The notes below the pieces were generated by a model, which was given only the letters and a program-made list of their open reading frames with translations, searched no databases and was not told the DNA's origin. The translations under genes and the position numbers were made by a program. DNA of 64,000 bases from an uncultured Chloroflexia bacterium (GTDB lineage Bacteria > Chloroflexota > Limnocylindria > QHBO01). The stretch is taken from the NCBI GenBank assembly GCA_963825525.1, contig CAWGTN010000002.1, positions 480,001 to 544,000 of the forward strand. The letters are read 5' to 3'. Below, in pieces: positions 2,058-46,615 of the stretch (positions are counted from its first letter, which is position 1; every line of letters begins with the position of its first letter).

Positions 2058-3182
2058 TCATACGGCCTCCGCAAGCCGGCGAGCGGCCAGGGTGGGGTGG
2101 AAGGTGGCTCCACCGTACGAATCCACCAACCCGCGACCCTCCAGCATGACCAGCGCACTGGCGACCGAGGCAGCCGGCTGACGGGCGCGATCCACGAGCT
2201 CCTCGATCGAGCCGGGCCGCTCCAGCAGGTATCGCATCAGTACCCCCTCCACCTCAGACAACGCGTTCACCGTCGGCGGCCGGCGATCGCGCGTGAGGCC
2301 GATCTGGCGCAGCAGCGAGGCACTGGACGTCACGAGCACCGCATGCTGATCGGCGATCAGGCGGTTGCACCCGCGCGACGCCATGGAATCAATGGGGCCC
2401 GGGACGGCGTACAGCTCACGGCCGATGGTGACTGCGGCCGCCGCAGTCAGCAGAGCGCCGGAGTGATCGGGAGCCTCGACCACCACGACGGCCTCCACCA
2501 GCCCGGCAATGATCCGGTTCCGGCGCGCGAAGTCCGGCTTACCGACCGCGCCGCCGACGGCGATCTCGCTGACGAGCGCGCCGCCGGCGCGCACGAGATC
2601 GCGCGCCAGCGCGCGGTGCCGCGGCGGATAGATGCGATCGAGCGGCGACGGAAGGACGGCGATCCCGCTCCCGCCAGCAACGAGGCCTCCGCGGTGCGCC
2701 GCGCCGTCGATCCCCAGCGCAAGGCCCGAGACGACCATCACGCCTGCCCGCACCAGCTCGTCGGCGATCTCGGTGGCAACCGAAAGGCCGTAGCCCGAGG
2801 CCCGTCGGGTCCCGACGATTGCCACGGCGCGCTCGTGGAACACCACTGCCGGGCCGACGATGAACAGCGTCGGTGGACGTGGGTCAAGGCTGCGGAGCGC
2901 GGGAGGGTAGTCCTCGTCGAGCGCGGTGACCACCTTGCCCCCCGCCGCCCGGGTGACGGACGCGATTCTGCGCGCAATCGCACGCGGATCGTCGGCGGGG
3001 ATCCACGCGGCTCGGCGCTGCCCCGATCGTGCGGGGCCCGGCGCATCAAGACCAGCCGGTCCCGCGCTCCACGCGTCGAGCGCCGAGCCGTATCGAGCGA
3101 GAAGACGAGCGAACCCGACCGGGCCGATCCCGGGAACGGTCGAGAGCGCGATCCATGCGTCACGCTCGGTGGCGCGACTCAC
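2058..3182 (-). CDS. dprA: DNA-processing protein DprA
   Basis: Motifs YPPALR..PP, VAIVGTRRAS, VSGLALGIDGAAH, FARRNRIIAG, SGALLTA, AVPGPI, GCNRLI. Confidence 0.95.
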   Translation of the reverse strand: MSRATERDAWIALSTVPGIGPVGFARLLARYGSALDAWSAGPAGLDAPGPARSGQRRAAWIPADDPRAIARRIASVTRAAGGKVVTALDEDYPPALRSLDPRPPTLFIVGPAVVFHERAVAIVGTRRASGYGLSVATEIADELVRAGVMVVSGLALGIDGAAHRGGLVAGGSGIAVLPSPLDRIYPPRHRALARDLVRAGGALVSEIAVGGAVGKPDFARRNRIIAGLVEAVVVVEAPDHSGALLTAAAAVTIGRELYAVPGPIDSMASRGCNRLIADQHAVLVTSSASLLRQIGLTRDRRPPTVNALSEVEGVLMRYLLERPGSIEELVDRARQPAASVASALVMLEGRGLVDSYGGATFHPTLAARRLAEAV

Positions 3183-3221
3183 CGCTTTCCCGTCCGGATG
3201 TGCGACCCGTGGCCACGCCGA

Positions 3222-4727
3222 TCATGCCTCCCCCTCCGGTGGCCGGTGGGCCAGGGCCTCGTCGAGGTGCTCCCCGCGCACGACGGACGAGCCGGCAAGG
3301 TCCGCGATCGTGCGAGCGACGCGTGCGGCGCGGTGGATGCGGCGCATCGACAACCGCAGCTGGCGCGCGCGGAGGTCGAGCTGCGAGCCGATGCCCGGCG
3401 AGAAACCCGTTCGCGCGTCAAGCCACGTCGGCGGCAGCTCGACGTTCGACAGCTGCTGCCGCTCCTGCTGGATGGCGGCGGCGAGCGCAACGCGGGCAGC
3501 AACCACGTCCGAGGCCTCGGCAACCGCCGGCTCGTGCGTCGCCGGGACGGCATCCAGCGGGACGACGAGGTCCAGCCGATCGCGCATGGGACCGGAGAGT
3601 CGAGCCTGGTAGCGACGACGGACGCCGTCATCACATGAGCAGGATCGCCCCCGAGCGCCGTACCAGCCGCACGGGCAGGGATTGAACGCAGCGAGCAGCA
3701 TGAATCGCGCGGGAAGCAGGAGGACGCGCTCGACGCGGGCGATCGTCACGGTCCCGGAGTCGAGGGGTCCGCGCAGCGCATCGAGCGCATCCGCACGGAA
3801 CTGGAGCGTCTCGTCCAGAAACAGGACGCCGCGATGGGCAAGGCTGACCTCGCCCGGCCGAACGCGCGGACCACCCCCGACGAGTGCCTGCATCGAGATC
3901 GTGTGATGCGGCGCTCGGAACGGCCGACGCCGCGAGAGCGAGGCCTCCACCGTCGTGACGCCGGCGACCGAGCGAACGCGGCTCACCTCGGCCAGCTCCG
4001 CATCGCCGAGCGGTGGCAGAATCCCGGCCGCGATCCGCGCCAGCAGCGTCTTCCCCACGCCGGGCGGGCCGGTGAACGCCAGGTTGTGCCGGCCTGCCAC
4101 CGCGATCTCGAGTGCTCGCCGCCCGACCGCATGTCCGACGACGGATCGCATGTCGGGGACGTCGTCAGCCAGCGGCCCCTCGACCAGGCACGGTGCGTCG
4201 GTGGTGGGGAGCCGGTCGAGACCGGCGAGGTGTCTCGTGACCTGGCGCAGCGTCCCGGCGCCGCGGACCTCGGCGCCGGGGACCGCCGATCCCTCGGCGG
4301 CAGCTGCGGCGGGCACGATGACCTCGGACGCACCGGCCTCGCGCGCTGCCGAGACAAGCGCCACGATGCCGGGCACGGACCGCAGGGTCCCGTCGAGAGC
4401 AAGCTCACCGATCAGCGCGACCCGGTCGAGCCCCTGTGCATCCAGCTGCCCGGACGCCACCAGGATTCCAACGGCCATGGCGAGGTCGTGGCCCGTGCCC
4501 TCCTTGGGCAGGTCTGCCGGAGCGAGGTTGATGGTGATCCGTCGGGCCGGCACCTCGAAATCCGAGTTCCGCAGAGCCGATCGGACGCGCTCACGCGACT
4601 CGAGGACCGCACTCCCGGCCAGGCCCACGATGGTCAGGCCCGGCAACCCGAAGGCGACGTCCACTTCCACCCGGACGGGGACGCCGTCGACACCCACCGT
4701 GGATGCGCTCAGCGTGGTGGCGAGCAT
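3222..4727 (-). CDS. comM: YifB/ComM family Mg-chelatase-like AAA+ ATPase
   Basis: ESRERVRSAL, ITINLAPADLPKEG, GPPGVGKT, PFRAPHH, PGEVSLAHRGVLFLDE, NPCPCG; directly upstream of dprA. Confidence 0.93.
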   Translation of the reverse strand: MLATTLSASTVGVDGVPVRVEVDVAFGLPGLTIVGLAGSAVLESRERVRSALRNSDFEVPARRITINLAPADLPKEGTGHDLAMAVGILVASGQLDAQGLDRVALIGELALDGTLRSVPGIVALVSAAREAGASEVIVPAAAAAEGSAVPGAEVRGAGTLRQVTRHLAGLDRLPTTDAPCLVEGPLADDVPDMRSVVGHAVGRRALEIAVAGRHNLAFTGPPGVGKTLLARIAAGILPPLGDAELAEVSRVRSVAGVTTVEASLSRRRPFRAPHHTISMQALVGGGPRVRPGEVSLAHRGVLFLDETLQFRADALDALRGPLDSGTVTIARVERVLLLPARFMLLAAFNPCPCGWYGARGRSCSCDDGVRRRYQARLSGPMRDRLDLVVPLDAVPATHEPAVAEASDVVAARVALAAAIQQERQQLSNVELPPTWLDARTGFSPGIGSQLDLRARQLRLSMRRIHRAARVARTIADLAGSSVVRGEHLDEALAHRPPEGEA

Positions 4728-4860
4728 CGAGACCTCGGCGGAGGCGACGGCATGGGCCTGGCGAAATGCCGGTCGCCACCTGCTCGCCTCCCTACTAACC
4801 AGCGACGACCGGCACCGCCAAGGCTAGGGACGCGGGTCTTATCGCCGGGTTAGGGGCGCG

Positions 4861-6068
4861 TTATCGGGCGGGAACGCCCTCGCTGCCGACCGTCGCCGCG
4901 AACATGGCGTCGAGCTCATCGGCAAACTTGGCCACGCTCTGTCCCAGCGGCGCCATCGGGCCGGCTCGACATGAACGGCTCGCCCGAGTTCAGGGCACTG
5001 ATGGCGCCGCGGTACTCGTTGATGACCTGGTAGTCGATCTTGCGACCCAGCGCGGACTCGGCGTTGTCGACGTTGATGCCGGTGTAGGCGTTCGATCGGT
5101 TGAGGACCAGCTGGACCTTGCTCCGCTCGTACCCCAGCGAGTCCATGGTCTCGAGCACCAGCCGGACGTTCTTCAGGCACGACAGGTCGGCGGTCATGAC
5201 CACGAAGATGACATCGGCCTCGTCGAACAGCTGGAGGTTGAAGTCGTCGATCGTCTTCGCCATGTCGACCACGGTGTAGTCGTAGGCGCGGCGCATGAGG
5301 CCCAGGATGTTCGAGAGTGAGCGCGGATGGGTGCGCTGGCGCTCCATGACGAGGTCCGCGGACTCCGGGTTGGGCGGCGCGAGCAGCAGCTCGCATCCCG
5401 GCATGGTGCGTGACCATGAGCTTGCGCAGCAGGTCGGCATCCAGGTCGTTCTCGCTGATGGCGTTCACGATCGACGCAGAGTCCAGGCCCAGGTCCAGGA
5501 AGACGCGCAGGTCGCCGAACTGAAGGTTGGCGTCAACGATGGCGGTCCGTCGCTTGAGGCGCTCGCGTGAGGGCGATGGCGGCGTTGATGGCGATGGTGG
5601 TGGTGCCCACTCCGCCCTTGGCGCCGTAGAAGCAGGCGAGACGGCCGAGCGTCGGGCCTCTCGGCCCCGGCCTTGGGCCTCGGAGTCCCGCCTGAGCGCG
5701 ACAGCAGCGCCTTGATGCGGGCGATGAGCTCGAGCGGATGGAACGGCTTGACGATGTCGTCGTCCGCTCCGGCACGGAGGCCCCTGACCCGCTGCTCCAC
5801 GTCGGCCTCGGCGGTGAGCATGATGATCGGCACGCGACGGGGGGCTGTCTCGGCCGCCCGAATCTGTTGCGGTCGCGGCGTAGCCGTCCAGGCGTGGCAT
5901 GGCCACGTCCATGAGGATGAGGTCCGGCTCGATGGATGCCGCCATCTCGACCCCGGCCTGGCCGTCGGAGGCGACGTGGACCTCGAACCCCTCCTGCTTC
6001 AGCGTGAAGACCAGGACGCGCTGGATATTGAGATCGTCGTCGACGACCAGGACCTTGGTGGCAGCCAA
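4861..6068 (-). CDS. Response-regulator receiver + CpaE/TadZ-type ParA/MinD ATPase (paralog 1); several frameshifts
   Basis: Pieces across frames: [34 protein letters not shown] (REC); [16 protein letters not shown]; [10 protein letters not shown]; [11 protein letters not shown]; LVLNRS; ALNSGEPF; stop TAA at 4861. Confidence 0.82.
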
Positions 6069-15214: not shown

Positions 15215-15402
15215 TTGCCCTCGATATATCGGAAGGATCTTCACAGGAACCGTCGGCTGCGTGTCGTTTTCCCGATATATCGAGCGCCACCACGCACGAG
15301 GGACACGCCGGGGCGCTGCTCATGCTGTGGGCCGCTCGAAATATCCCGACAACCGCACGCGCCATCGGCCTCGCGTGAAGAACGCGCGATCTATCGAGCG
15401 AA
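15215..15402. repeat. REP/REPIN-like long inverted-repeat element, copy 1
   Basis: Palindromic 10-mers at 15222 (CGATATATCG), 15273 (CGATATATCG), 15337 (CGAAATATCC), 15387 (CGATCTATCG); left and right arms are imperfect reverse complements. Confidence 0.8.
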
Positions 15403-15938: not shown

Positions 15939-17025
15939 TCAGTCGTTGTAGAGCCGCTCTTCGATCAGCTTCTCGGCCGTGATCCGTCCCGTCGGATCAA
16001 AGCAGCTGTATTCGAAGAGCTTCTCGTATTCGAGGTCGACGTTGTCCTGCCCGCCGCGATTCTTCTCGATCGAGGCGATGATCCAGTCGCGATAGCGCTG
16101 CGCCTGGTACGGGTTGAACTCGATGTTCACCTTCGCGACGATGTTGTACTTGTCGTTCAGGATCAGGATGATGTCGGACTCGTAGTTGATGGCCGATGAC
16201 CCGCGCAGGTGATGGTTTCGCAGCCGCTTGGCCTTGAGGCCCTCCCGGTCGGCGGCGACGATCGCCACGACCGGGATCGACTCGGCGAGCGCGATGTCCT
16301 TGAGGCCGGACACGATGCGGGTGACCTTCTCCTCCTCGGTCGTCGGCTCCGGGATGACCGGGACCTTCTGGAGGTAGTCGACGAAGAGCACCAGGCGACG
16401 CTCATCGTCGCTTCCACGGTGCTCTCGCACCAGGGCACGAAGGTTGTCGATGGTCGAGCACGGTGGCGGTGCCGCGCATGAGGTAGAGGTTCGAGCCGTA
16501 GCGTGCGATGCGCTCCAGCGAGGGCCGAAGGCGAGGATTGGCGCCGAGCTTCGCGCGGGTGCCGGTCTCGGCGGAGGTCGTGTACGAGCTGACGACCTCC
16601 TTCTTGACGTCCTGGATCTTGACTGCGCCGGTCTTCTTCGGGAGGTGGCTGAGTGCCGACTCCATGGCGACCATGCGCTGGATCAGGTACTCCTCGTCGT
16701 GCTCGAAGCAGACGTAGAGCACCGTGGCCTGGCCGGACGCCGCCATGTTGCGAGCCATCTGGAGCGCCATGGTGGTCTTGCCCTGTCCCTGGGCGCCGCC
16801 GATGAGCATGAGCTCGCCCGGTCGCAGGCCACCGCCGATGGTCTTGTCCATGGGCACGAAGCCGGTGGCGATCGGCACGAGGTCGTCGATGCTGCCGGAT
16901 GCGACGCGCTCGTTCAGGCTGGTCAGCACGTCGAGCGCCGAACGCGGCGCCAGGGTGCCGTCTCCGGCATCGAGCTTCCAGTCCGACTCGGACTTCTTGG
17001 GCTGGGCGACGGGCTCGTCGATCAT
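15939..17025 (-). CDS. DnaB-like helicase C-terminal (RecA-fold) ATPase lacking the DnaB N-terminal domain; frameshift near 16460
   Basis: IATGFVPMDKTIGGGLRPGELMLIGGAQGQGKTT, LFVDYLQ, LRGSSAINYESD, IEKNRGG correspond to DnaB H1, H2, H4 and the K-x-R finger. Confidence 0.8.
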
Positions 17026-19213: not shown

Positions 19214-19399
19214 CGTGGTTCTACTTTCGCCTCCGTGCGATCGGCATCCGGCCTGCGGCCGTCGACCGGCGCGGAACAGCACGCTCCGAGCCGGGCAAGT
19301 ATAGGTGCGGCCGATTGACCGAACAAACGACCCATGAGTACGGGGGCCGTCGCTCCTGATACGTGGGCCGTCGCGCCTTGACTCACCCTGCTCCCCGTT

Positions 19400-19473
19400 G
19401 TGCGCCGAATTTGTGCGCCGATCCGGTGCGCCGATCCCGTGCGCCGAGCCTGTGCGCCGATCTTGTGCGCCGA
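19400..19473 (+). repeat. 13-bp tandem repeat, 6 copies (core GTGCGCCGA)
   Basis: GTGCGCCGA starts at 19400, 19413, 19426, 19439, 19452, 19465; variable 4-nt linkers. Confidence 0.92.
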
Positions 19474-19598
19474 TATTTCAGCCGGCACTGAGCGTGGCGG
19501 GCGCCGCCGGGCGCGGTACGCGCTGGGCATCATCCGACATATCGACGAAACCGCGCCTGATACGGCTTCCAGGCCACAGCGCAACCGATCAATCGGCG
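19471..19598. repeat. REP/REPIN-like element, partial copy 3
   Basis: Motifs at 19471 (CGATATTTCA), 19535 (CGACATATCG), 19586 (CGATCAATCG); spacing 64 and 51 as in the other copies; arm sequence resembles the right arms of copies 1 and 2. Confidence 0.65.
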
Positions 19599-46429: not shown

Positions 46430-46615
46430 GCCGCTCGATCTATGAGGGCGTGCATCACCGGAGACGTCCGCCACGCGCGGTTCCTTCGATACATCGACTG
46501 CCCGTGCGCGTGAAGTGCGCGGCTGCGGGACTCTCACGCGGCGGAACTCTCGATTCATCGCGGGAACGACACCCAACGCGGCGTTCCGGTGACAATCCTG
46601 CGATCTATCGAAGTG
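46430..46615. repeat. REP/REPIN-like long inverted-repeat element, copy 2
   Basis: 10-mers at 46436 (CGATCTATGA), 46487 (CGATACATCG), 46551 (CGATTCATCG), 46601 (CGATCTATCG); spacing 51/64/50 identical to copy 1; central CGCGTGA..TCACGCG hairpin. Confidence 0.8.

Follow-up and report, generated by a model that had tools for sequence, protein, structure and literature searches.

The window analysed here is a stretch of 64,000 nucleotides (C2:480001-544000) of a soil genome of Ca. Limnocylindria (Chloroflexota, a placement taken from homologue names), labelled G000, which measures 2.58 Mb at 68% GC and is 92% complete. Between a HAD hydrolase gene and a DnaJ-domain gene it carries an element built of four 14-bp palindromic boxes, and a second copy of this type-A element, a decayed element of another type and a pair of competence genes lie elsewhere in the window (Table 1). 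A sequence-only reading of this DNA had placed four 10-mers of copy 1 at 15222, 15273, 15337 and 15387, with gaps of 51, 64 and 50 bp, and had given copy 2 identical gaps; both descriptions are confirmed, the boxes of copy 2 starting at 46436, 46487, 46551 and 46601. The arms are also homologous between the copies, as had been proposed, and can be aligned with a mean column identity of 72% including the boxes; overall the two copies are 62% identical. The consensus element comprises four palindromes, CTCGAT-NN-ATCGAG, spaced by 50-51, 64 and 50 bp, and measures 178-181 bp between the outer edges of boxes 1 and 4. Two mismatches to CGATNNATCG occur in box 3 of copy 1, and two in box 1 of copy 2. 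In the column profile, the spacers of type-A elements hold short secondary motifs at fixed columns and the flanks carry no information. Short tandem GTGCGCCGA repeats occupy positions 19380-19470, directly before the decayed type-B element and upstream of ftsH, and a DnaB/RadA-like ATPase gene (15939-17025, minus strand) appears to be split into two overlapping ORFs of 163 and 207 aa by a frameshift or a sequencing error.

Table 1. Features of the window and the candidate partner gene elsewhere in G000; positions are those of the window unless a contig is named.
Feature	Position	Strand	Remarks
comM (YifB) and dprA	2058..4727	-	comM 3222-4727, dprA 2058-3182; competence genes outside the element, putatively in one regulon with the nuclease genes
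Triple 11-bp direct repeat (GRTAAG x3)	4836..4866	-	Putative competence box upstream of comM-dprA, score 22.0
Type-A four-box element, copy 1	15220..15398	.	179 bp
Copy 1, box 1	15220..15233	.	14-bp palindrome CTCGATATATCGGA
Copy 1, left arm spacer	15234..15270	.	Secondary motifs GGA.., TCAC, GTG and TTC at fixed columns; remainder near random across copies (column profile)
Copy 1, box 2	15271..15284	.	CCCGATATATCGAG
Copy 1, central spacer	15285..15334	.	50 bp; inverted pair of secondary motifs, family consensus GCGTGAG ... CTCACGC
Copy 1, box 3	15335..15348	.	CTCGAAATATCCCG, degenerate
Copy 1, box 4	15385..15398	.	CGCGATCTATCGAG
Decayed type-B element	19449..19595	.	GCCGATATATCGGC-type boxes; variant bracketing the paralogous nuclease gene P0001
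Type-A element, copy 2	46434..46612	.	Between convergent genes; gene content at the site variable in relatives
Type-A nuclease gene	G000:C2:1398584-1399285		233 aa; between two full type-A elements; 0.9 Mb from the window copy

The two copies belong to a dispersed family. Distances between sites matching the palindrome form sharp peaks in G000 at 50-51, 64, 114-115 and 164-166 bp, and the fixed four-box pattern occurs at 22 places, within the window exactly at 15222 and 46436, but at none in the reversed genome or in three 2-Mb Markov simulations. The genome scan that the earlier reading had called for, carried out as a census with a PWM and nhmmer, gives 24 type-A elements, one of which is cut off after box 3 and lacks box 4, and beyond these one half element and several decayed variants. 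All 24 are intergenic, with a gene overlap of at most 7 bp under a rough gene model, and their neighbours, which have no common function, are oriented in tandem at 14, divergently at 6 and convergently at 4, close to the background of 556 long gaps (309, 168 and 79, respectively) and with no position bias. Median identity is 63% over 253 pairs, with a single pair at 99%, and agreement between copies is 0.89 at conserved and 0.34 at variable columns; the median marks the copies as old, so that hardly any recent transposition can be seen. Ordinary chromosomal genes lie between clustered copies, for which reason a reading as integron-like cassettes was abandoned. The tyrosine recombinases of G000 are located far from the elements. 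The GC skew of G000 has no clear replichore pattern. A 397-bp duplication, 98.5% identical between C1:17277-17671 and C2:1466401-1466797, has an element at its centre and about 110 bp of flanking DNA to either side; flank co-transfer and an assembly artefact are both possible, and one of its flanks, judged from its translation, presumably corresponds to the start of atpG.

The family had further been credited with the capacity to form a hairpin or cruciform, and here the evidence is weak. Copy 1 is indeed predicted to fold end to end (z -2.2, with 6 of 200 shuffles folding as well), but folding is weak overall and the structure predicted for copy 2 (z -1.5, 12 of 200) is not an end-to-end hairpin. 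The notion of a covarying hairpin did not survive comparison of the copies: across 21 of them (three being left out as truncated, poor or duplicate), arm complementarity is 0.492 within a copy and 0.498 between copies (p=0.66), and for the central half the values are 0.498 and 0.519 (p=0.88). What is conserved in the element is box sequence and box spacing, not base pairing.

A partner encoded elsewhere had been anticipated for a two-arm family of this kind, and a candidate gene does lie outside the window, between two type-A elements. The earlier reading had suggested a look for copies flanking a RAYT/IS200-like or DUF559/Vsr-like gene; the flanked gene encodes an XRE-type HTH domain joined to a domain with a predicted PD-(D/E)XK fold; profile searches of G000 with PF01797 (Y1_Tnp, RAYT) and PF04480 (DUF559/Vsr-like) gave no match, and the latter is absent among the 25 of 27 families listed for 50 homologues, although a remote kinship with it is possible. 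This protein is the candidate for the factor, postulated from the letters of the window, that reads spaced palindromes. Its structural model (pLDDT 92.5) contains the alpha/beta core fold of the PD-(D/E)XK superfamily. The modelled N-terminal domain matches HipB and C proteins (9u9g, Z 10.3; 2b5a, Z 9.1) and the modelled C-terminal domain (residues 95-225) matches NucS/EndoMS (2vld; Z 10.3, rmsd 2.9, 102 aa aligned), with further matches to AF1548 and XisH (Z 9.1). E116, D127, D147, R153 and K158 are invariant in 50 diverse homologues and E140 almost invariant. Paralogues D, E and F have the canonical xK lysine, the E-V-K of paralogue D being in register with E140-I-D142, and the clade of the type-A protein has E or D in its place; with the usual catalytic lysine replaced in this way, the predicted activity would rest on the invariant K158 standing in for it. 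Modelling also predicts a homodimer formed through the HTH domain (score 0.69 against 0.00 for the best control, contacts agreeing to at least 74%, pLDDT at least 81), at a score mark reached by 20 of 30 solved pairs and by 1 of 23 single chains, and the score is probably owed to the likeness to HipB. XRE dimers read palindromes of about 14 bp. PADLOC and NCBIfam matched only the HTH of the protein, its nuclease-fold domain being named by no library; the ESM Atlas returned unnamed Chloroflexota clusters, and a PDB sequence search almost only HTH proteins.

G000 encodes six such paralogues (A-F), three of them more distant, and five have repeats of their own. The type-B gene (P0001, 232 aa), a 50% paralogue of the type-A gene, is bracketed by two decayed-looking variant elements, and the type-C gene lies between elements with the palindrome CGGCCA-N5-TGGCCG. 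Single-query searches with the units beside genes B, C, D and E found about 5, 13, 7 and 5 repeat places, the list of 7 places for gene B including two type-A cross-hits; for gene F no associated repeat was identified in G000. Genes A and B lie in divergent orientation and flank a sigma-54 response regulator gene (C2:1393000-1401000), and in the relative G057 the gene B position holds tandem elements and the gene is absent.

The pairing of gene and element extends well beyond this genome. In other genomes, flanks of homologues attain the four-box score in 22 of 38 cases upstream and in 21 of 38 downstream, whereas control stretches at a distance of 1 kb do so in 0 of 35 and 0 of 38; a flanking palindrome family could be derived de novo for 49 of 84 distinct homologues. 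On a tree of the 84 proteins, CGAT-type repeats occur in a single clade, of 45 rows (SH-aLRT 95), the type-A gene grouping with genes flanked by CTCGA boxes, and other clades have other flanking palindromes (AGTCA-N4, TACCA-N7, GCTCA-N5, GTCAC-N3 and GGCCA-N5); this match between clade and palindrome comes from a quick tree on which kin share labels. Box spacings recur across clades while the sequences change, and the 29 distinct values fit a period of 10.35 bp (range 10.25-10.4; 0 of 5000 random sets), a statistic inflated by the fact that some values are sums of others; the fit gives p=0.009 for 11 collapsed clusters and p=0.012 for the 14 values from non-CGAT clades. Related arrays form asymmetric tandem runs such as 63/62/63 or 50/50/40/50. 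At the level of whole genomes the tie between gene and elements is looser. The inner box pair was found in 21 of 30 genomes with a close gene match and in 15 of 115 without, and within the genus in 14 of 19 and 6 of 16, for a crude gene-match cut-off of E<=1e-74 applied to incomplete assemblies with G000 and five unpublished genomes left out; two genomes without a close gene match, G139 and G030, hold 11 and 5 inner box pairs. The gene itself keeps to a small number of positions, and at 20 of about 43 loci of the CGAT clade it has one and the same downstream neighbour. Taken together, these observations support the pairing of gene and element across genomes well, and we have little doubt of it.

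Upstream of the nuclease gene in all clades there is a triple direct repeat of GRTAAG-like units with an 11-bp period, followed by a weak CANNNT -10 and often by a leaderless start; an 11-bp period recalls response-regulator boxes. A motif matrix trained on 78 nuclease promoters from other genomes finds 25 sites above a threshold of 18.5 in G000, compared with 1 in the reversed genome. Behind these sites lie comEA-comEC, comF, comM-dprA, ssb, radA, radC, recJ, the recA operon and two UvrD-like starts, along with nuclease paralogues B, C, D and E, and the remaining 11 are followed by rplS, by a GntR gene, by genes whose connection is not evident or by nothing recognisable as an ORF; for about half of the 25, no competence gene is apparent downstream. 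Among loci of relatives with enough upstream DNA, the motif precedes comF in 18 of 18 and comM in 23 of 24, at a constant distance, and dnaJ in 0 of 15, with reversed and downstream controls giving 0. For lexA the motif score is -2.2 and for two UvrB_inter-domain genes -3.0 and -3.1, which favours competence over SOS. We therefore consider it very likely that the nuclease gene family belongs to this putative competence regulon. The motif is degenerate in G000 at the cognate type-A gene (5.0) and at paralogue F (8.7), and the closest relatives of the type-A gene (L016 and L017), which are members of the training set, score 19.3 and 29.6. A degenerate type-A promoter fits the age of the type-A copies, in contrast with gene B, whose two elements are 87% identical. 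Of 42 CGAT-clade promoters, 9 have their last palindrome at the position of the first repeat unit, a layout that probably reflects autorepression. None of the elements lies close to a promoter-motif site, the shortest distance being 1.9 kb.

Comparison of orthologous sites indicates that elements come and go. Empty sites in relatives, which the sequence-only reading had proposed to look for, proved to be many. Among 18 relatives with both genes flanking copy 1, nine have a gap of 27-58 bp and two a gap of 78-97 bp without boxes, and the remaining seven hold three CGAT-box arrays and four other fills. The orthologous-looking element of one relative, G154, is closest to copy 1 (74%, against a median of 60%), so copy 1 would be older than that species split. 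Conversely, 27 element loci were taken from six relatives and 19 proved syntenic with G000, where a gap of 17-72 bp lies opposite 11 of them (9 sites), a full element opposite 2 and the half element opposite 2; the spacers of the two same-site full elements are unrelated (18 of 48 variable columns each), a sign of refilling or replacement. Either gain or loss can account for an empty site. Eight filled/empty pairs were aligned, seven of them too diverged to place the element ends; at locus L164 the insert is bounded almost exactly by the outer boxes and sits between two stop codons, without duplication. The idea of a MITE with target duplications accordingly finds no counterpart here, neither in a common flanking direct repeat at 21 copies nor at this one sharp pair, although old copies could have lost duplications. 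Contigs of other strains from four DNA runs, compared with a 19.9-kb stretch that holds six elements along with two nuclease genes, have among the joints listed none that removes an element, a result that is uninformative either way. Where elements have stayed in place, copy 1 and its G154 counterpart agree at 33 of 42 conserved columns and at 31 of 48 variable ones; for three orthologous pairs from G057 and G123 the figures are 121 of 126 and 131 of 144. Such weak constraint in place suggests that the motifs are kept mainly because intact elements get copied, and not for the benefit of the neighbours. The copy-1 site also appears to be a hotspot for several families: in G145 and G089 (L063, L070) it holds another palindromic repeat, TGACCCG...CGGGTCA, and in G153 (L077) a type-C-like repeat.

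The closest parallel is offered by REPIN-RAYT systems (REPtrons) and TIRtrons, described as dispersed intergenic palindromic elements with a low-copy enzyme gene flanked by cognate repeats (10.1101/2021.07.10.451892; PMC3733652; PMC8266576). The likeness includes extragenic palindromic elements of 100-200 bp that are dispersed and patchy between relatives, an enzyme gene at few chromosomal loci flanked by its cognate repeats, and different enzyme clades with different repeats, several pairs occurring per genome. Set against this, the partner here combines an XRE-HTH with a PD-(D/E)XK fold, whereas RAYT is an HUH/Y1 transposase; four phased 14-bp boxes separated by near-random spacers make up the element, whereas a REPIN has two hairpin REPs read single-stranded; and the copies are far more diverged, with a gene family that shares its promoter motif with competence genes. 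The profile contains no GTAG or CGTC tag at the foot of the palindrome, columns outside box 1 carrying less than 0.3 bits, and the G000 elements show no hairpin whose arms have stayed complementary, as in REPIN-RAYT. The available text of another report describes YraN and CoiA as ssDNA or structure-specific endonucleases paired with a helicase (PMC13663708). These have in common with the present protein a PD-(D/E)XK fold and a tie to natural transformation, together with ComM or RadA (PMC13663708), and differ in that the protein studied here is fused to an XRE-HTH and has up to six paralogues, most with their own dispersed repeat family; the same text describes neither an HTH nor repeats for YraN and CoiA.

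Other resemblances are confined to parts of the system. HipB and the C proteins of restriction-modification systems share the N-terminal fold, the dimer mode and palindromic boxes overlapping their own promoter, but in the present case a nuclease-fold domain is fused, boxes also lie downstream and at about 20 unrelated loci, and no toxin or methyltransferase neighbour of the partner gene was seen. The modelled fold of residues 95-225 is that of NucS/EndoMS, XisH, SfsA and the R2 retrotransposon endonuclease, at 10-19% identity, and a common fold is not evidence of common function. MITEs are non-autonomous elements with inverted ends, and PD-(D/E)XK homing endonucleases exist that spread by cut-and-repair. 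Unlike MITEs, the present elements have no detected target duplication and no apparent link to a DDE transposase; unlike homing endonuclease genes, the gene lies outside introns and inteins, and its boxes are also scattered through the genome in its absence. Our search of the main texts of mostly open literature found no description of the present repeat-plus-nuclease system; a paper on Limnocylindria (PMC13212565) has no mention of repeats, palindromes or nuclease, and a paper not singled out for that class (PMC12378983) none of extragenic, Chloroflex- or homing.

How might these parts work together? On balance we lean towards a REPIN/RAYT-like layout served by an unrelated enzyme that is made at competence, the steps of binding, cutting and spreading being ones that we infer. 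The element would be the non-coding half of a two-part system, and the XRE-HTH and PD-(D/E)XK-fold protein its other half. Competence would induce the protein, HTH dimers may then bind the four 14-bp boxes on one face of duplex DNA to give a complex of fixed geometry, and the nuclease domain could nick or cut at the element. Repair with the co-induced RecA, DprA, ComM and RadA, using chromosomal or incoming DNA as template, would copy, replace, multiply or delete intergenic elements without target duplication; where a box overlaps the promoter motif, the protein probably represses its own gene. Given the degenerate type-A promoter and the old type-A elements, the type-A subfamily may now be nearly idle in G000. 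The broader proposal concerns a whole class of nucleases, sequence-specific, switched on at competence and each matched to a helically phased palindrome array of its own, for which natural transformation would be the means of spread: cutting of the array during DNA uptake would lead to its being copied or replaced, at times along with neighbouring genes. We put this forward tentatively, as possible though somewhat short of probable.

Much of the same evidence could be accommodated by a domesticated transformation aid, for which elements would be cut sites or landing pads for incoming DNA, including unrelated cargo at intergenic hotspots, and spread would be a by-product. A competence motif common to the whole nuclease family, the retention of the gene at few loci, 20 of about 43 with the same downstream neighbour, the variable gene content beside copy 2 and the 397-bp duplication with its flanks would all suit such a role, and the PD-(D/E)XK nucleases YraN and CoiA are reported to resolve transformation D-loops (PMC13663708). 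We nevertheless think it unlikely, as motifs enjoy little protection in place, six divergent paralogues with private repeats resemble an element radiation, and elements are patchily present. It might also be that the protein binds and does no more, acting as a repressor or chromosome-organising factor with a dead nuclease fold while its operator arrays are spread by other means. The HipB/C-protein-like dimer of the model, the helical phasing, the palindromes lying on the first motif unit in some promoters and the absence of the canonical lysine in the type-A clade are what such a factor would lead one to expect, but the invariance of the acidic active-site residues over very diverse homologues, the lack of preference for promoter sides, neighbours without shared function and the gain and loss of sites make it decidedly unlikely.

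Helical phasing, which fits duplex DNA, and the asymmetric tandem runs of related arrays argue against a REPIN-like single-strand chemistry in which a loosely paired hairpin would form in ssDNA, such as incoming DNA, with box 1 against box 4 and box 2 against box 3. Some features do point that way, since an end-to-end fold is predicted for copy 1, DNA taken up in transformation arrives single-stranded (PMC13663708) and, the boxes being palindromic and the secondary motifs symmetric, the conserved columns would be able to pair in a fold-back; given the lack of within-copy covariation and the different fold of copy 2, we hold this chemistry to be very unlikely. The imperfect dyad symmetry and the intergenic position, which includes places inside operons, could likewise suggest a structured non-coding RNA, as the first description of the window had considered, or a terminator or mRNA-stabilising hairpin. 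An Rfam search of the window at gathering score returned one tRNA and nothing at the element, and with weak folding, no covariation, no convergent or 3' bias and a sequence symmetry without strand polarity, a function as RNA appears extremely improbable.

Even for REP/RAYT, the spread of bacterial palindromic repeats and the reasons for which hosts retain the helper enzymes are described as an open question (PMC8266576). Here the REP/RAYT layout has been reached with an unrelated enzyme, possibly representing a new class if the transformation mechanism holds, and the putative link of a repeat-paired nuclease family to competence is new. The system points to a time of action, during competence, which could be tested with a 26-kDa protein and a 180-bp substrate, and the many pairs of paralogue and palindrome offer a natural code that sets recognition helix against target. 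The promoter motif in turn defines a putative competence regulon in an abundant uncultured class of soil and freshwater bacteria, and suggests that Limnocylindria are naturally transformable. If the broader proposal is true, no other repeat family would have been connected with the transformation programme inside the cell before this one, its nucleases would form a natural HTH-programmed set whose protein-DNA pairs can be read, and Limnocylindria would gain a first competence box.

Some smaller observations from G000 concern the motif sites themselves. At rplS (C2:252549, plus strand) a competence-type motif overlaps the start region, and strong motifs without a clear gene at C2:813028, 137981 and 88602 and at C1:23705 are candidates for small RNAs or missed short genes. 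The two UvrD-like starts (C2:186383 and 191301, minus strand) have identical promoters 4.9 kb apart, one with an ORF of 206 aa, and represent a local duplication. An AbiEi_4 match lies at C3:49494. A 21-bp near-palindrome, possibly a small element or small RNA family, occurs at C2:943373, 1293081, 1947392 and 1700344 and at C4:23756, in four of the five cases just behind a competence-type motif.
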